DNA from: an uncultured Methanosarcinaceae archaeon
Lineage (GTDB): Archaea > Halobacteriota > Methanosarcinia > Methanosarcinales > Methanosarcinaceae
Length of the DNA stretch: 64,000 nt
NCBI GenBank assembly: GCA_963733675.1
Contig: CAVTET010000004.1
Coordinates: 192,001 to 256,000, forward strand
Direction of reading: 5' to 3'
Positions within the stretch are counted from its first letter, which is position 1. Each line of letters starts with the position of its first letter. The notes beneath the pieces are model-generated. The model searched no databases. It was not told where the DNA came from and saw only the letters and a list, made by a program, of their open reading frames with translations. The translations under genes were made by a program, and so were the position numbers. This document shows, piece by piece, positions 2,380 through 21,425 of the stretch.

Positions 2380-2568
2380 ATGGATTCTCCTTCTTGAATC
2401 GCTTATCTAGATGTCATTATGTCTATTGATTCGTCAGAAAAAATTTAAACATTAGACGATTTATTCAGGCACCACTGCGATATTCACTACTGATCACAAG
2501 GCTTTAAAACATAGATTGTTAACAGTTAGACGTTCAATCCGTTTCTGTTCCTTTTTTGACTGATTGTA

Positions 2569-2656
2569 GAGAATTTCGATAAACCGATGAATTTCAAGAG
2601 TCATATATACTATTTATAAACCATATGACAAAGTTTTGGAGTTTATCTAAATTCTC
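2569..2656. mobile_element. ~90-bp MITE, family A, copy 1
   Basis: Termini GAGAATTTCGATAAAC ... GTTTATCTAAATTCTC; interior similar to other copies. Confidence 0.8.
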
Positions 2657-3006
2657 TCTAGTCAATTTGTAGTGGAATTAATAGTAAGTTTTGGTGATCT
2701 AAGAAAATATTAAAAAATCTCCAAACATCGATCTGGAACTATTCATATAACTTATTACAACAATCAATAAAATCAATATATTCATAATTATATATCCATG
2801 CCTTCAGTGCCCAATAGCTCATGGATAATAATGTAAGTTATTATTAGGTTTTCGGTGGGATTAGATAAATGTGTCTATATTTCTCCATTTTAGATTATAT
2901 TCTGAATGTATTTATCTTCAAACTCTTCAAATTTAACTTGTACCAATAATTATGTTTTAAATGGGTTTGATTATAAACGAATCTTATTTTTTTAAAAAAT
3001 TATTTT

Positions 3007-3978
3007 TTAATCTTTTTCCTGACAGGAGCTCCTTACCAGATCAAATATGGCCTTTCCATCTTTTAGACCATTAATCTTTTCCCTAATATTTCGTGAATTA
3101 TGTAATCCTTTTGTAAACCAGTGAGCATGCATCCTCAGATTTTGAGAAGATAACAGATTATGTTCTTCAAGTAGGGTGATATATAATTCAAAATCTTCAA
3201 GCTGTCGGGCCTGCTTGTCTAGTTCCAGCTTTTCTCCGGTTTCCAGATAATATCTAATTCTCCTGAATATGAACGGATTTCCCATTGCAGCCCGCCCTAT
3301 CATAAGCCCATCACAGCCTGTAAACTCAATAGTATTTTCTGCAGACTCTTCGTCCTTTATGTCACCGTTTGCAATCACTGGAATTGAAAGTTCGCGTTTG
3401 ACTGCCTTGATAGCTACAAGATCCGAGCTTCCGGAGTACATCTGCTTTGCCTCCCTGCCATGCACCGTTATGGCAAGAGCTCCTGCATTTTCGATAAGTT
3501 GCGCAATCTCAAGGGTCTTTTCATCTCTTTCCAAAATCCTGATCTTTACAGTTACAGGTGTTTTCAGGGCATATGTTAACTCTGAGACTATTTCAGAAAC
3601 AAGCTCTGGAGATTTGAGAAGAGCTGAACCGCACCCTGCTCCTATAATGCATTGTACGGGGCAGCCCATATTGATATCGATGACTTCAGGCCTAAACTCA
3701 CTTTCAACAAAGATGGCAGCTTCCCGCAGCTTTTCAGTTGAACTCCCAACAAGCTGAACTCCAAAAGGCCGGTCATAAAGTGAGCTCAGTCCTTTAAGAA
3801 GAGATTTCCGATTTTTGCTGAGCAAGGCATCTGAGTTGATCATTTCGGTGTATGTTATGTCAGCTCCATGCTGCCGGCATAGCAACCTGAAAGCTAAATT
3901 TGTAACTCCTGCCATGGGTGCAAGAAAAAGGTTTCCAGAAGTTTCAAGCTGACCAATTTTTAATTTATTAAGCGTCAT
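3007..3978 (-). CDS. tRNA-dihydrouridine synthase (Dus/NifR3 family)
   Basis: LAPMAGVT, DINMGCP, TVHGR, IANGDI and MIGRAAMGNP motifs. Start probably ATG 3978 (ORF track extends to 4014). Confidence 0.92.
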   Translation of the reverse strand: MTLNKLKIGQLETSGNLFLAPMAGVTNLAFRLLCRQHGADITYTEMINSDALLSKNRKSLLKGLSSLYDRPFGVQLVGSSTEKLREAAIFVESEFRPEVIDINMGCPVQCIIGAGCGSALLKSPELVSEIVSELTYALKTPVTVKIRILERDEKTLEIAQLIENAGALAITVHGREAKQMYSGSSDLVAIKAVKRELSIPVIANGDIKDEESAENTIEFTGCDGLMIGRAAMGNPFIFRRIRYYLETGEKLELDKQARQLEDFELYITLLEEHNLLSSQNLRMHAHWFTKGLHNSRNIREKINGLKDGKAIFDLVRSSCQEKD

Positions 3979-4239
3979 TTTTATACAATTCAAATTACTT
4001 TTTTTTAAAGCCATTTTATGAATTAGATCTACTGTGATTTGTTAAAACTCAAATAGATTTCGCACAATTATTTGAAAAATATCAGAATTTATATATGAAA
4101 GCCCTAAAATCGGAAACTAAAATGGATAATCTATAAAGGCCTTAAGAAGCAAAAGAGAAATAAAATAATCGAATCAAGAGATTGTGAAAGCGGAGACAAA
4201 ATGCTAATTTTGAAAGTTTAGTCAAAAATTAATGTCTTT

Positions 4240-5050
4240 TTATGTTATTCTGTCCAATGAATACAAACACAAAAAAATCCCCTTCAATTTCTATCAAGAA
4301 TATATGCGTTCCTATTAAATCGACTCTTGCGATTCAATTTTTTATGAAAACTTAATTTTTGTGATATTTTAGCAAGCATAACAGAAAGGATTTGGTTATC
4401 AATAAATTATTGATAGTCTTGGTGATATATAAGCTCACCAATAATTTTCGCATCAGAGAAGCTGGCAAATGGTTAAATAAGGGAAAAATTATCGACATCT
4501 CCGACCTCAAAAAATTTCATGAAAAGGTCCTTTACAGAACTCTTGAAATCTTGAAGAGTAACGAAAGAGAAATCCTCCCTGATATTCTGAACAATATTTT
4601 TCAGTTGACGATTCAAAAAAAAGATTTAACTTTGGACTGAGCAAGTATAGTTCTTCAAAGCACTAAATCCAAACTTGGCAAGTATGGATATAGTAGTGAT
4701 CAGAGACATGATGGATTATGGATAACAGTCTAATTTATTAAACTCAAGGAAACCATAAACATATCATGAAGTTACAGTTAATGGAGGCAATGTTCTTGAC
4801 TTGCAGCATTTTTCTGACAATTTTATGATCAGGTGAAAATGAACTCAAAAACGGTTCTTGAATAATTTTTGACAATGGAACTAATTCAGAAAACAATATT
4901 CAACTTCCTCAAAAAGAGAATATTAAGTATCTAGCTCCAATGAAACAGAATACAAGTGATAATAGAATAATTGAAAAGTTTGATAAGAAAAAAGTCGAAA
5001 AGATAAACCCAGAAAAAGTATACGTGGGGTAAAAATCGTCAAGTTAAGTA
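4240..5050 (+). pseudogene. Decayed transposase, IS1634-like
   Basis: Fragment 4392-4640 (YKLTNNF..., ERVLYRTLEIL-like) plus frameshifted flanks; aligns by eye with the relic at 36900-37370. Family from recall. Confidence 0.65.
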
Positions 5051-15733: not shown

Positions 15734-16485
15734 TGATCGAAATTGTCTATATACTCTGCCTGAGGCAGTTCAAGCATTATTGGCGCTCCAAGGCTAGATT
15801 AATAGGTTCTCTTGGCCAGCCTCTACTTTTCATGGTAGCATTCGGATTCGGATTTGGTCCAATGTATACCAGAGCTAATGAAGGGGCAAACTACATTGAC
15901 TTTATAGCTCCGGGAATTATCACCATGGCAATTCTCTTTACAGCTGTTTTTTCGGGCCTTGAGATAATATGGGACAGAAAATTCGGTTTTCTTAAAGAGA
16001 CCCTGGTAGCTCCGATATCTAGGACAGAAATCATGATCGGTAAAACATTTGGAGGAGCAATCATATCAATGATTCAGGGCCTAATAATGCTAAGCATAAC
16101 CTATTTGTTTGGGTTCAGGATTCCCAATCTAGGTAGCCTTTGGATGGGGCTAATTTTCATGTTCCTGATAGCTATATTCTTTTCAGGCCTTGGTCTTACA
16201 ATAGCCTCCAAAATGGAAGATATGCAAGGCTTCCAAATGATATTGAACTTCGTGATTATGCCCATCTTTTTCCTATCAGGTGCTTTCTTTTCCCTCAAAG
16301 ATTTGCCGGATTCAATTTATTTAATAAGTAGACTCGATCCACTTACCTATGGCGTAGACGGCCTCAGAGGATCATTGGGCGGAGTAAGCACTTTTGGCAT
16401 CTACAACGATCTGTTAGCAATAGGTTCACTGTCAGTCCTTATATGTGCAATTGGAACAGTGTTTTTTTTGAAAATCGAGGCATAA
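15733..16485 (+). CDS. ABC-2 (DrrB-like) permease
   Basis: About six TM segments, FFLSGAFF and PLTYGVDGLR; coupled to the ATPase gene. Confidence 0.92.
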   Translation: MIEIVYILCLRQFKHYWRSKARLIGSLGQPLLFMVAFGFGFGPMYTRANEGANYIDFIAPGIITMAILFTAVFSGLEIIWDRKFGFLKETLVAPISRTEIMIGKTFGGAIISMIQGLIMLSITYLFGFRIPNLGSLWMGLIFMFLIAIFFSGLGLTIASKMEDMQGFQMILNFVIMPIFFLSGAFFSLKDLPDSIYLISRLDPLTYGVDGLRGSLGGVSTFGIYNDLLAIGSLSVLICAIGTVFFLKIEA

Positions 16486-16597
16486 GCATCCATAGTTACT
16501 CTCCAAAAAACTGGGTTTAAAGGTCCAAAGATTGAAAAACCAAAAAAGGATCAGGAGAGGCAGTAATTTCGATTTGATGTAGTTCCGAGTGACTATT

Positions 16598-16635
16598 GAG
16601 GATTAAAATAAATCTCTGATTTTCACGAGTCATTT
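16598..16635. mobile_element. Truncated family A MITE
   Basis: GAGGATTAAAATAAATCTCTGATTTTCACGAGTCATTT matches the left ~40% of the MITE. Confidence 0.65.
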
Positions 16636-16798
16636 GAGAATTTCGATAAACTCTATCCATTTGACATTGGAAAGCTTAAGTCTTTAACAATAATTTTTAC
16701 TCATGAAAAATTTTACTTATTTTGCTCTTAAAGAAGAATGTAAATATTTTCAGCCAGTTGGAACTAAATTTGCTGAAATCGATTCCTTAATTCCTTGA
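16636..16798 (+). pseudogene. IS left end plus transposase 5' fragment (IS5-like) sharing the family A terminal repeat
   Basis: GAGAATTTCGATAAAC, then ATG 16703 MKNFTYFALKEECKYFQPVGTKFAEIDSLIP*; homologous to 37375-37590 and 53229-53305. Confidence 0.7.
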
Positions 16799-17838
16799 AA
16801 ATCTTTCAGTATCATTTTTGAGTTTTTTTGTCTATGTTTTCGATAACTTGATCATTGCATTTTATACAAAAATATATCGTATTTGACCAATTACATCCCA
16901 GTAAATGCAAAAAAGTATTCTGAAGTACAGAAATATATTAAGTATATTTTGATGCAGGTTAAGTATAAATTAATTAATTGTTATATGACGTCTGGTTGGT
17001 TTGTCAGAAATTGGATAACGGATTTGAAATAGTATAGTAAACTTTAAAAGTTGGCGCCAGAAATTTTATTACCACCTAACATAACACTTTACTGGCGCTA
17101 CTTTCACAATCACCATGGATGACACTTCAATAAAACTATAAATAAAAATACTAATAGAATAATCATTGTCTATTAAATTTAATTTATTTTTTGCATCATT
17201 AAATTATATAATAACTTTTTGGCTTTTTAACATAATAATGGCCTTGCTTGCGACTAACTATTTTCTGTTTATCAGTTAATGTGATACAGCTGATCTTATG
17301 TGTTAAAAAGTTGATTTTCTTGGCTGCAGTTGATCTGATACCTCAACCTGCCGGCAAGTCAACTGCAAGGTACGGGAATACCTATGAATTATAACTAGAT
17401 TTAAAGTATTCTATATCTTTTACATATTGTTGCATATATACTACTTAGTACTAACTTAAACTAATTTATGAAATTTCTGTGGTCTGATCTTTTATATTAG
17501 AAGTGGATCTGTCCTCCCTGCCCTTTTTGAAAAACCGGATTGAATTTTATTATAATCATATAAATATGAATAGATCAAATTCCCATAAATGCATAGTTTT
17601 TGTGTTAAAAGCTCTGAATTTTCGAAGTTACATCCAGAATAAAAAAACATTGAAGATCTGTTACTAATGGAGTTTATGGGACTCCTAAAACATATGGAGT
17701 TCATGGAACACTTGGAACTAATTAGCTTATACCACGATCATAAACAGAAAACAATGAAAAAATAGTTATATAATTTTAGCTATGTATTAAAAATTTTATG
17801 AAGTGCGGTTGATTCTATATCTTTTTCTTCCCGATGAA

Positions 17839-18358
17839 AAACAGGAATTGATCAGTCTGTTAGAAGATAGAGTTAAAGAGGAGGGGAAAATAAGCTTTAA
17901 AGTATTGGGTTGATTATCTTGCTAACTGTATACTCAATATTATATTGTTGTTAACTTCCTGTTAATAGATGGATTCTCTAGATGTAGTTTTAAAAAATTG
18001 GTCACCTAATTCCGAGGCCAATAATGACATTCTTTAAGGTCATCAATATGTCCCATTTCTTTTTTGAGTCTTCTGCATTACTTATCATTAATTATAATGA
18101 AGGACAAAATAATAAGTACCGCAGAAGACTCAAAAAAGAAATGGGACATATTGATGACCTTAAAGAATGTCATTATTGGCCTCGGAATTAGGTGACCAAT
18201 TTTTTAAAACTACATCTAGAGAATCCATCTATTAACAGGAAGTTAACAACAATATAATATTGAGTATACAGTTAGCAAGATAATCAACCCAATACTTTAA
18301 AGCTTATTTTCCCCTCCTCTTTAACTCTATCTTCTAACAGACTGATCAATTCCTGTTT
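17839..18358. repeat. 238-bp inverted repeat with 44-bp spacer
   Basis: 17839-18076 is the reverse complement of 18121-18358; no mismatch found on reading through. Confidence 0.95.
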
Positions 18359-18387
18359 ACAGTATGATACTTAACTTTTGTCTAATT

Positions 18388-18450
18388 TTCACGATTATAA
18401 TGCCGAATGCCCACTGCTTCAGATGTGGGTGATCTACCTTATAATCATAG
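18388..18450. repeat. Imperfect hairpin element with an IS200/IS605-end-like core
   Basis: TTCACGATTATAA..CCCAC-TGCTTCAGAT-GTGGG..TTATAATC; related to 19297-19360. Confidence 0.65.
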
Positions 18451-18736
18451 CAAAATAGATCGCAAGTGAATTTATTGATTTTACCTATGTGTTTTTAATA
18501 TTTTTTTTGCATTTATTGGAATTTCCTATAATATACGAAGTGATCAAGTTTACAGATACATAGACAATAATCTGGTTCTTCGCTATTTTGTGTGAATTAA
18601 AATTAATTATCCAGTAAAGAAGTTATGACACCAACGTGATTAATGCTCTAGGAAAAGATAATGTTAGATTCTGATGACTCCACAAATAGCAACAACAATT
18701 CTTAATATTTATTTGTTTTTTGATTGCAAAAAATTT

Positions 18737-18808
18737 TATGCGAAGTTATTTTTTGTTTAGAAACTATTTTTCTATGCAAGATTATGTTTTATTTAGAAAC
18801 TATTTTTC
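18737..18808. repeat. Imperfect 36-bp tandem duplication
   Basis: TTTAGAAACTATTTTTC at 18756 and 18792; related motif near 20444. Confidence 0.75.
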
Positions 18809-18950
18809 ATATAATTAATTTAAAATAACTTCGAAGATAATTATGTATTGTATCGTATCGTATCACTGGTATCACAGAACGAACAGATCAATAAGAGTGA
18901 AAAGTCACAGCTACAGTAGGACTAAAAAGCAGAGTAGAATAGCTTGGAGG

Positions 18951-18992
18951 ACGTTGTCTTATTTCGAATTAACGTTGTCTTATTTCGAATTA
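18951..18992. repeat. Perfect 21-bp tandem duplication
   Basis: ACGTTGTCTTATTTCGAATTA x2. Confidence 0.9.
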
Positions 18993-19299
18993 AATTTATG
19001 ACTTGTGATATATATTCGAAGTAACTGGATCTGAAGAGACAGTACAGACAACTCTTCCAAGTTTCCATCCAATCTTTTTTAATGCGCTCTATTTGGTAAA
19101 ATGCATAATTTATGCCACAACAAATATGCATATTCTCAACGTCAATTTTCCATTATAATATTTTTCACTATTAAAACCTAACTCACAAGCTTAAAAGTAT
19201 AGAGAAACGCAGAGTCATTTGAATTTAAACAAATTATTTTTCCAGCTCAATTTGCTTTTCTGTTCACAAGTCTTAATACTAAATGTGATTTCATTTTCA

Positions 19300-19357
19300 C
19301 GATTATTAATATAGGATAACCACTGCGTTAGATGTGGTTATCCTATATTAATAATCG
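19300..19357. repeat. Perfect 24-bp hairpin with 10-nt loop
   Basis: CGATTATTAATATAGGATAACCAC-tgcgttagat-GTGGTTATCCTATATTAATAATCG. Confidence 0.92.
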
Positions 19358-19955
19358 CGATACACAATATAGCCCACTTAGTCCATATCGATTTTATAAA
19401 ATTTTCATAACTTCAATACATTTGACTATATTCTTTTTTAAAATTTTCATATCATTAATTTGAGCTTTCCAACGATTGAACTGTATATTCCTTCCAAATA
19501 ATCTCTACTTATCGAACTTGATTGTTCAAAGCATTAATTCCGTCATTTGCTACAGTAATCAGTATCTTCCCGCCTGTTAACTAAACATTAAAAAATCTTT
19601 AACATGGGAATCATTAGGATTATCGGGCTTCATTACATTGATTGAAACAGTAAATTTCATAAATTAGGAAATTGGTAAATTCAGATTTGTTCCATGACCC
19701 AAGAACACGACCTGAATTTGATATGAAATAAACATATGTTGCTTCTTAGAAAGAACTCTATGCTAAATTTAGGAAATTATCTGGAAATAATAAAAACATC
19801 ATTAATATCAAATTGTTGTTCAAAATTAAAATATTTTGTTCAGTAGTAACTTTTATTCCAAACCTATTTTTACAAAATTGATTAAAAATAATTTAGGAAT
19901 TTGGTTACATTTCAACAAAAATTAAGAGTTCCAAAGCAGAAAAGGAGATCGAATA

Positions 19956-20383
19956 AGGGCAACTTTAAAATTTCTGAAGTTTGACACCGATGATGGTGCA
20001 GAAAATAATTTGAATTGATCGCGGGTTTCAGAAAGGAGTAATTGATTAAATTGCACGATGCAGCAATAGCCACCTGGCCTATTGGGAAAAAACCAAAACC
20101 AAAGCATTTGCCTGATTTCCTTTATTCCTTTATTTGGCCTGGTCGCCGGGGCCACAATAGGTGCATTTGCCGGTTCCATGATCTACCTGGGTATTAATGA
20201 AGATTTCATAATATCGATCCGTAAAAAATGACTGAAGGAACTTCAACTCTTTTTCTGATGACTAGCGATGCCGTTGAGGATAGGATAGTAGAAGCTATGA
20301 AACAATCCAAGTTTGAAATTATTGCTATCAACCTAGCCAAGGAAGAAGAGGCCAAACTGCATGCAGTCTTTGCTGAAGAATAA
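19956..20383 (+). pseudogene. DUF1269-like membrane protein pseudogene
   Basis: AGGAGA RBS, start codon lost; broken translation ATLKFLKFDTDDGAE...LHDAAIATWP...FIPLFGLVAGATIGAFAG...EGTSTLFLMTSDAVEDR...LHAVFAEE*. Confidence 0.7.
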
Positions 20384-20707
20384 AATTCGCCGAAAAAGAA
20401 ATCAGTTTCTACCAGAGAGTTAACTTTCTGAAATCCACTTTAGTTTTGTTTAGAAACTATATAATTATCTTTTTTCTAATTTTTCTATTTCTGATCGTGG
20501 CCTAAGATAATTAGTTCCAAGTTTTCTGCGAGTCCCATAAGTCCATGAGTAATAGATCAGAAATAGTTTCTTATTCTATATGGAACTTTGGAAATTCAGA
20601 GATTTTAGTCAAAAACTATGCATCAAAGATGTCATAAAAACACATGTTTTGTCAGCCTTACCAAGATTCTACATCCTACTATATTTTACAGAACTTTTGG
20701 TACACTT

Positions 20708-20850
20708 CCGATGTAATTAAAAAATATGTAGAAAATCATGATAACCAAGAAGAAAAAAAGCATATAAACAAATTAAAAAAAATCTTATTTTGAATAATTT
20801 TATTCATATCCCGAGCAATAGCATACACATTTACTTGCAGCGGGTGCCCC
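20708..20850 (+). mobile_element. IS200-type 3' remnant (tnpA C-terminus plus end hairpin)
   Basis: DVIKKYVENHDNQEEKK... and ACTTGCAGCGGG, similar to 38000-38132 and 56990-57120. Confidence 0.6.
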
Positions 20851-20927
20851 ACATAAATCTATATTAAATTGGAAGAAAAGATTTTAAAAGCTCCTGAAGA
20901 GAAAAAATATAATCAAGTCTAAATCCC

Positions 20928-21425
20928 CTAAAGTGGGCAACCAATCTCTTTTATTATTAGCTTTATAGCTTCATCGACACCTTTGATAACTTCAGGGCTT
21001 ATCTCTAACGTAGCTTCAGTTACCCTGGCTCCTATTTCGATCCCAATGACTATAATTTCTGGAAGAAGCTGGATCTCATTCCCAATACGTAATACATCTG
21101 TAATTGTAAGATCGTGAACTGAGACCAGGTTACAAGGCTCAGTGTCTTTTTTGATAAGGTCTTTACCCTCTATACGGTGTACAGAACCTACAGGACTGTC
21201 CGCAAGAATTGCATCCACTAAAATGATCTTTCGAGCTCCGTCAAAAATATTAAGAAGGTCGAGCCCACATACACCTGCATCTACGATATCAATGCCTTCG
21301 CTATTTTTAAGTTCCGTTTTTTGAAGAGTCTCAATGACCTTCAGACCAATACCATCATTTCCCATTAATAGGCTTCCGCACCCTAAGACACGGACCGGAG
21401 CATGTAATATAGACATATTCTTCAT
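20928..21425 (-). CDS. vhtD: Hydrogenase maturation protease
   Basis: VLGCGSLLMGNDGIG, VDA and SVHD motifs; last gene of the vht operon. Confidence 0.92.
   Translation of the reverse strand: MKNMSILHAPVRVLGCGSLLMGNDGIGLKVIETLQKTELKNSEGIDIVDAGVCGLDLLNIFDGARKIILVDAILADSPVGSVHRIEGKDLIKKDTEPCNLVSVHDLTITDVLRIGNEIQLLPEIIVIGIEIGARVTEATLEISPEVIKGVDEAIKLIIKEIGCPL

Follow-up and report, generated by a model that had tools for sequence, protein, structure and literature searches.

A long palindrome in an archaeal intergenic island

How does a palindrome with perfect arms of 238 bp arise in an archaeal chromosome, is it present in the cells or only in the assembly, and does it have a function? These questions are raised by a locus of an uncultured Methanosarcinaceae archaeon whose genome (G000 in the following) is a draft of 3.92 Mb in 15 contigs that is 92% complete. 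We analysed a stretch of 64,000 nt of this genome (G000:C4:192001-256000), referred to as the window; positions given without a contig name are those of the window. A repeat search in the window returned an inverted repeat with arms at 17839–18089 and 18108–18358, 251 nt each and 99% complementary, which are separated by 18 nt. A base-by-base check found three mismatches only, at 18077, 18078 and 18086. The outer 238 bp of the two arms are perfect reverse complements of each other, and the whole palindrome measures 520 bp (Table 1). Both methods thereby agree with the original prediction, which had been made from the sequence alone and had described exactly these perfect arms; the 7-bp continuation of the stem that it had placed beyond a 2-nt mismatch is found at 18079–18085 and 18112–18118. 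Outside the arms pairing drops abruptly, with 3 of the next 13 positions being complementary. Folded as single-stranded DNA, the segment 17820–18380 yielded −287.1 kcal/mol, compared to −44.1 ± 4.6 kcal/mol for 100 shuffled sequences, none of which reached the same value (z = −52.8): chance can thus be excluded as the origin of the 520-base hairpin.

The palindrome is located on a contig of 814 kb, and its flanks are unique and orthologous to those of related genomes on both sides. The window contains the genes of the archaeal RNase P, a [NiFe] hydrogenase and a cytochrome b, together with long AT-rich stretches that are free of genes. The palindrome itself lies in an island of ∼4.4 kb (16486–20900) with a GC content of 0.29–0.32 and no long ORFs, bordered by an ABC-transporter permease gene, which ends at 16485, and a hydrogenase maturation protease gene.

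Table 1. Parts of the palindrome locus (window positions) and further hairpin-type palindromes of G000 (contig positions)
Feature	Position	Strand	Remarks
Outer part of the resident left copy (modules A + b50)	17589..17838	+	not overwritten; orthologous to piece 1 of G045 scaffold C408
Left arm, proposed recipient	17839..18076	+	resident left copy replaced in register by right-copy sequence; pairs with the right arm over all 238 bp
Inner imperfect stem, upstream half	18077..18089	+	ancestral; in relatives it follows the family's upstream region; collinearity with the G045 right copy starts here
Loop, 18 nt	18090..18107	.	ancestral family sequence in the orientation of the right copy
Inner imperfect stem, downstream half	18108..18120	-	ancestral
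Right arm, proposed donor	18121..18358	-	ancestral short-form copy; contiguous with centre and right flank in four relatives
Right flank	18359..19950	+	collinear with G045; unrelated to the continuation of the repeat family
Palindrome 2	C1:568356-568774		419 bp
Palindrome 3	C5:242973-243211		239 bp
Palindrome 4	C6:25248-25456		209 bp
Palindrome 5	C6:81630-81756		127 bp

Independent sequence data contain the palindrome junctions

Parts of the stretch are contained in 20 public sequencing runs, and eight of these, which come from two soil-metagenome studies, hold 34–88% of the sampled words. Short-read contigs of four runs were compared with positions 17300–18900. An exact 104-nt contig of run X1 (record 4, 18047–18150, depth 9.9) comprises the centre with 30 nt of each arm around it, and such a junction of arm, centre and arm exists only in the palindrome; it is listed in X1 only, which may be the source sample of the genome. 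A second exact contig of the same run (record 6, 18121–18744, 624 nt) joins the right arm to the right flank. The left boundary was found in two further studies: an exact contig of X3 (record 19, 17691–17868) and a contig of X9 with one difference in 260 nt (record 25, 17766–18025) connect the unique left flank to a left arm of the converted, right-type sequence, which can be recognized from the left copy of the related genome G045 differing at 8 of the first 30 arm positions in the four-way alignment described below. None of the contigs compared covers the entire 520 bp, as expected for contigs of the k = 31 type. Taking the single depth figure that each contig carries, an arm-only contig of X3 has a depth of 4.7 compared to 3.0–5.3 for the flanks, and the contig of X1 that contains arm and flank has 13.3 compared to 13.5, 9.9 and 8.8.

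The palindrome is therefore real and not an artefact of the assembly. The original prediction had considered a chimera of amplification or assembly as a real alternative, in which case the palindrome would have no counterpart in the cells. The draft state of the genome, the missing single contig across the structure and an arm depth that is not visibly doubled in the contigs compared (one figure per contig) could be taken to point in this direction, also if a library chimera is included. However, such a chimera would have to produce two reproducible junctions, and it is contradicted by contigs from other runs: the fold-back centre is exact in X1, where the right arm is also contiguous with its flank, and the left-flank junction recurs in runs of two further studies. 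Together with the 814-kb contig and its unique orthologous flanks on both sides, this makes a chimera very improbable.

A palindrome of this size is a known substrate of DNA repair in bacteria: according to excerpts of PMC3315005, a 246-bp interrupted palindrome in the E. coli chromosome is processed by the hairpin nuclease SbcCD. As far as these excerpts describe it, the E. coli construct and the archaeal palindrome are of nearly equal size and design, with long perfect arms around a short non-palindromic centre in a prokaryotic chromosome. In contrast to the engineered E. coli palindrome, for which cost and processing were measured, the one in G000 is natural. A perfect palindrome of the size attacked by the E. 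coli nuclease thus persists in wild populations sampled in three studies.

The arms belong to a dispersed repeat family

The arm sequence has 36 other copies in G000 with identities of 71–83%, in line with the earlier statement that the remaining dispersed repeats are heavily diverged. Eight other long copies run contiguously from ∼17589 to 18089 and hence across the outer boundary at 17838/17839. Judging from this alignment, the left arm is the inner half of a long-form copy of ∼500 nt, whose outer half (17589–17838) is still present. Other family members are short-form copies that begin near the equivalent of 17839–17855. No long ORF is shared among the 29 family copies compared, and column variability over the arm sorted by codon phase (0.144, 0.125 and 0.111) showed no clear codon periodicity; we treated the family as non-coding and degenerate on the basis of these sequence properties. 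The protein-like frame that had been proposed to cross the left boundary consists of only 40 stop-free codons and has no start codon. A Pfam search at E ≤ 1 yielded no family for this frame, for a 32-codon frame that starts in the loop or for an ORF of 55 aa at 18024–18188.

The sequence that follows the inner end of the arm in other family members was informative with regard to the centre of the palindrome. Its first 27–28 nt match the minus strand from 18107 to 18080 with 78–93% identity in 9 of the 11 copies tested. The loop and the inner stems of 10–13 nt are accordingly a small hairpin that belongs to the repeat family itself and shares the orientation of the right arm, and the short central inverted repeat is older than the event that formed the palindrome. 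All three mismatches between the arms fall exactly inside this old stem. The upstream region of the family beyond the first 28 nt was searched for in both flanks and returned weak matches only (E 0.04–0.8, 18356–18394). With nine candidates scored per genome, six of the 58 other genomes of the genus were found to contain the family, and it was not found in the remaining 52. In a literature search we found no earlier account of the repeat family, nor of long palindromes in Methanosarcina.

Related genomes carry a single copy at the locus

Four relatives (G045, G059, G046 and G063) hold the locus with a single copy, in which centre, right arm and right flank are contiguous; the palindrome itself is absent in all four. 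In G045, which is the closest relative, positions 2431–4736 of scaffold C408, which contain no Ns, are collinear with 18080–19950 of the window at 91.6% identity. The alignment of this right copy starts at 18080, or by eye at 18077 if a gap of 1 nt is allowed. Upstream of the central hairpin G045 has the usual upstream sequence of the family and not a left arm. In G059, G046 and G063 the single copy is 77–79% identical over 18080/18130–19110, and the ABC-transporter gene known from the window adjoins it at a distance of 438 nt in G063 and 1,958 nt in G046, the distance in the window being 1,307 nt. The counterpart of the left side (17188–18060) was found in G045 as well, at positions 1–872 of C408: identity is 86–88% over 17589–17838 and falls to 76% (170/223) within the arm. 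Scaffold C408 contains NN joins at 873, 1656 and 2429, so that the spacing of 2 kb between the two copies and their relative orientation rest on the scaffolder. In addition, the left copy of G045 is truncated at the position that corresponds to 18060.

We compared both arms of G000 with the left and right copies of G045 in a four-way alignment of the arm columns 17839–18060. The left arm and the reverse complement of the right arm of G000 are identical at 222 of 222 positions. To the right copy of G045 the arms show an identity of 92.9% (208/224), which is the same level as in the flanking sequence (91.6%), and to the left copy one of 76.2% (170/223); the two G045 copies are 78.6% identical to each other (176/224). 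The right arm is thus identified as the donor. In the 60 nt beyond the arm each side matches its own G045 flank (51/60 on the left, 44/51 on the right), compared to 16–19 of 60 crosswise. The original prediction had regarded the left arm as ancestral; the alignment instead assigns both arms to the right-copy type, and the centre likewise has the orientation of the right copy. With respect to G045, the perfect tract begins beside the ancestral 13-bp stem and its outer end coincides with the last block common to the left and right copies (17839–17849). The short inner inverted repeat, previously suggested as the seed of the palindrome, is accordingly a pre-existing feature at the very place where the long perfect tract starts.

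The comparison also shows a loss of DNA. Upstream of the central hairpin G045 carries 442 uninterrupted nt that have no counterpart left of 18077 in G000, and no copy of them with at least 90% identity was found elsewhere in G000. Judged by this alignment, at least 442 nt between the two copies have been lost from the G000 locus, or ∼2 kb if the G045 scaffold is right. The event proposed originally was a duplication; it was not unique DNA that was duplicated, and the alignment suggests instead that a resident inverted family copy of ∼78% identity was overwritten in register, while the DNA in between was lost. Its dating as very recent agrees with the 0 differences in 238 bp: compared to the 8% divergence from G045, the identical arms suggest that the event took place long after the two species had separated. 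At position 18120 G045 has a T where the window has a C, and one of the two mismatches at 18077–18078 may consequently be a later change. The locus is a natural example in which the states before and after the event can be compared cleanly: donor, recipient, the two switch regions and the deleted DNA can each be identified.

These data bear also on the question of whether the palindrome could be a mobile element of the foldback type (a MITE whose terminal inverted repeats are very long) or the scar of a linear replicon with hairpin ends. MITEs and foldback transposons likewise combine long inverted arms with a short centre, lack coding capacity and reside in intergenic repeat-rich DNA, and the gene-free island would be a typical surrounding. 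In contrast to such elements, no second palindromic unit exists, as the 36 other arm copies all lack an inverted partner in their vicinity; the bases that flank the palindrome at 17838/18359 do not form a direct repeat, so that a target-site duplication is missing; and the arms come from separate ancestral contexts, each outer junction being ancestral in its own right. Neither IS termini nor a transposase were found, as stated before, and the arms contain no transposase or resolvase ORF, the three ORF-like frames being without Pfam match. For the hairpin-end scar that had been listed among the earlier suggestions we found nothing in support. We therefore consider a mobile element or replicon scar exceedingly improbable.

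Template switching at an ancestral hairpin as the proposed origin

Taken together, we regard it as probable (roughly 0.7) that the palindrome is young and resulted from the homogenisation of two oppositely oriented, diverged repeat copies, for which template switching at the ancestral hairpin is the best mechanism. In the ancestor a long-form copy on the plus strand (now 17589–18089) would have been followed to the right by a short-form copy on the minus strand at a distance of at least 442 nt (∼2 kb in the G045 scaffold), with ∼21–24% divergence between the copies. The inner end of the short-form copy would have carried the small hairpin of the family with a stem of 10–13 bp and a loop of 18 nt. 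A strand synthesised leftwards through the right copy could then fold back at this hairpin and copy the right copy for 238 nt, after which the new strand would pair again with the left copy, in the final block that both copies have in common (17839–17849), and synthesis would continue. As a result the left copy would be overwritten with the sequence of the right copy and the intervening DNA would be skipped. A variant in two steps, in which a deletion came first and was followed by quasi-palindrome correction, is equally compatible.

Such a replicative pathway, if it operated, would account for several features in a single path with two switches: arms of donor type, an ancestral centre in right-hand orientation, mismatches confined to the old stem, an in-register junction at 17838/17839 and the loss of the intervening DNA. 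Two details fit the fold-back model imperfectly. The return switch would have taken place at the very last homology block, unlike a random return point; and the unpaired positions 18077–18078 lie immediately beside the perfect tract, which simple hairpin priming does not readily explain.

The homogenisation and extension of imperfect inverted-repeat arms by template switching has been described before in E. coli, yeast and primates (excerpts of PMC8604942, PMC13100816, PMC8794818 and PMC7202029). As in these quasipalindrome mutations, an imperfect inverted repeat existed beforehand, one arm appears to have been turned by one clustered change into an exact complement of the other, no change occurred in the donor arm and the perfect stem extends outward from a short older stem. 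The individual signatures can be traced at the locus: the two copies of G045 are 78.6% alike and 9 of the 11 family copies tested contain the central stem-loop; the clustered change affects one arm, with the donor at background divergence (flanks 85–86% over 60 nt, right side 91.6%); and both switch points lie at prior complementarity or homology, namely the 13-bp stem and the block 17839–17849. Differences concern the extent, since 238 nt were rewritten here and tens of nucleotides in the cases described in the excerpts of PMC8604942 and the related reports, and the recipient, which in G000 would be a separate copy of ∼78% identity at least 442 nt away with deletion of the DNA in between. The host is furthermore an archaeon, and a literature search yielded no report from archaea in which template switching homogenised inverted repeats. 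If the proposed origin is correct, homogenisation of the template-switch type is able to change ∼240 nt in one event and to join repeat copies with a divergence of ∼22%, and it does so in an archaeon. The tract length and the fusion of two diverged repeat copies would be unusual; the mutation process itself is already known.

The divergence of the copies is compatible with folding in cis. In yeast, inverted repeats that are kilobases apart fold back in single-stranded DNA, and heterology suppresses the reaction only above 25% (excerpts of PMC10164571). By the limit given there, the 21–24% divergence of the archaeal copies falls within the permissive range. In the excerpted yeast work the product is a dicentric inverted duplication at the scale of a chromosome that arises after tail removal, whereas in G000 both flanks are kept and the palindrome is local, which would need a second switch back to the original template.

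Other palindromes in the genome and the role of arm-to-arm conversion

A genome-wide scan of G000 returned five hairpin-type palindromes of 127–520 bp, with the one in the window being the largest. All five consist of perfect outer arms (238, 159, 100, 72 and 51 bp) and an imperfect centre (Table 1). At the locus of palindrome 2, the halves lie ∼1.6 kb apart around an Hsp20-like ORF in G046 and G063 and their arms are diverged; in G000 the arms are perfect and abut. The difference could also stem from an insertion in the relatives instead of a loss in G000, since the 1.6-kb unit occurs in several copies in G000. Palindrome 4 goes back to an old quasi-palindrome that is imperfect in G045, G059 and G063 and nearly perfect in G000, with changes in both arms. 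For palindromes 3 and 5 the search in relatives returned just matches to repeat families, or flanks that end short of the palindrome. At least two other palindromes of G000 (2 and 4) thus seem to show related histories, as the same loci carry diverged arms in the relatives.

At the second locus, the arms in G046 are located at ∼945–1173 and 2738–2963 (positions within G046:C116:13300-17300); their inner ∼150 nt are identical and their outer parts are diverged, which we read as a partial homogenisation of the arms across a spacer of 1.6 kb. The segment between them (1174–2794 of the same region) encodes the Hsp20-like ORF of 118 aa. Units related to this segment were observed in G000 at C3:2445-3897, C14:11786-13237, C4:100832-101834 and C1:171645-172441 with 79–84% identity, and tblastn with the ORF against G000 gave matches at 83–89%. 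The unit may represent a repeat-flanked cassette with a small heat-shock gene that is gained or lost as a block.

These loci are relevant for a second explanation of the palindrome in the window, in which recombinational gene conversion homogenised the arms and continues from arm to arm as concerted evolution. The loss of the spacer would then be a separate deletion, and the palindrome might be older than its arms suggest. Replicative template switching and recombinational conversion cannot be separated by sequence alone. Conversion would explain the identical inner ∼150 nt in G046 despite the 1.6-kb spacer and the complementary changes in both arms of palindrome 4 compared to G045, G059 and G063; the converted tract in the window also spans the whole region of homology, as expected from full heteroduplex repair, and excerpts of PMC1803023 describe long near-perfect inverted repeats as actively maintained. 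On the other hand, the arms had an identity of just ∼78% before the event, a low value for homologous recombination; at the main locus the ∼50 differences were without exception resolved in favour of a single donor; and the palindrome is carried by no relative. The three mismatches kept in the inner 13 bp also fit priming at the stem better than heteroduplex repair. We therefore consider gene conversion an unlikely alternative to template switching.

The other loci raise the possibility of a more general, lineage-typical process in this methanogen clade, which would recurrently collapse inverted copies of its abundant dispersed repeats into long perfect hairpins and delete the DNA between them, with palindromes of up to 238 bp being tolerated and possibly kept perfect by conversion between the arms. 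At one locus the deleted DNA would apparently be the cassette with the Hsp20-type gene. We put this forward as a tentative proposal that is more doubtful than not by a wide measure. If it holds, inverted copies of dispersed repeats would regularly drive deletions and the formation of new palindromes in archaeal genomes, and the handling of hairpin DNA in this lineage would be worth studying in view of the result obtained for Rad50. The Pfam model of the Rad50 zinc hook (PF04423) had no match in G000 or in 15 further genomes of the genus, among them several complete ones, although a model of 52 positions is too small to claim absence of the gene. In other genera of the order 2 of 9 genomes matched, one of them weakly, and the Methanocaldococcus and Sulfolobus controls matched as well. 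A hook that has diverged too far or an unusual Rad50 in the genus would explain this result.

Function of the palindrome

The palindrome appears to be a neutral structural accident without function. The original prediction had proposed a search for a single-arm allele in relatives and had named such an allele, combined with a lack of transcription, as the mark of a neutral accident; the allele was found in all four relatives, and by this measure the sequence comparison points to an accident. A functional element, for example a locus for a long-hairpin RNA, a switch with an invertible spacer or a cruciform selected for protein binding, could be suspected from the extreme stability of the fold, from the presence of the structure in samples of three studies and from contigs of the RNA-library run X17 that cover parts of the region. 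These contigs are ∼92% identical and thus come from a diverged relative, and contigs cannot show strand, ends or transcription. Against a function speaks that each of the four relatives with the locus has one arm only, that the structure is built of non-coding repeat DNA without ORFs or codon periodicity and that no Rfam family reached its gathering score. With regard to an invertible spacer, the assembled orientation of the loop is the only one among the contigs listed (X1 record 4), where it has to be considered that contigs drop rare variants. Overall, the chance that the palindrome is a functional element seems slim to us.

Structured RNAs were considered separately. An Rfam scan by E-value over 16400–21000 matched the hairpin solely to microRNA-precursor models from plants and animals, none of which reached its gathering score, and we regarded these as generic hairpin matches. 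A gene for a structured or long-hairpin RNA seems unlikely, as the pairing is not conserved, the relatives having one arm. For annotation, such hairpins in repeat-rich intergenic DNA of archaea should be taken as a warning: they would be products of rearrangement and not RNA genes or mobile elements.

Further elements of the island

Almost the entire island (16486–20900) is composed of modules from different families of dispersed repeats, such as the one at 17589–17775, which has more copies than the arm module, and its length and content vary in every relative examined. It contains a perfect tandem duplication of 21 nt at 18951–18992 and, at 19286–19370, a further hairpin-forming segment that is matched solely by microRNA-precursor models below threshold. 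A short element centred at ∼18790–18830 (18690–18865) has at least 86 local matches in G000 and occurs in many other genomes of the genus with 77–97% identity. It includes a tandem pair of 36 nt (18734–18805) and gave no match in an Rfam search. In the RNA-library run X17 the depth of this element (bins 866 and 766) far exceeds that of the rest of the stretch; a small RNA of high abundance is conceivable, as is a repeat resembling a promoter.
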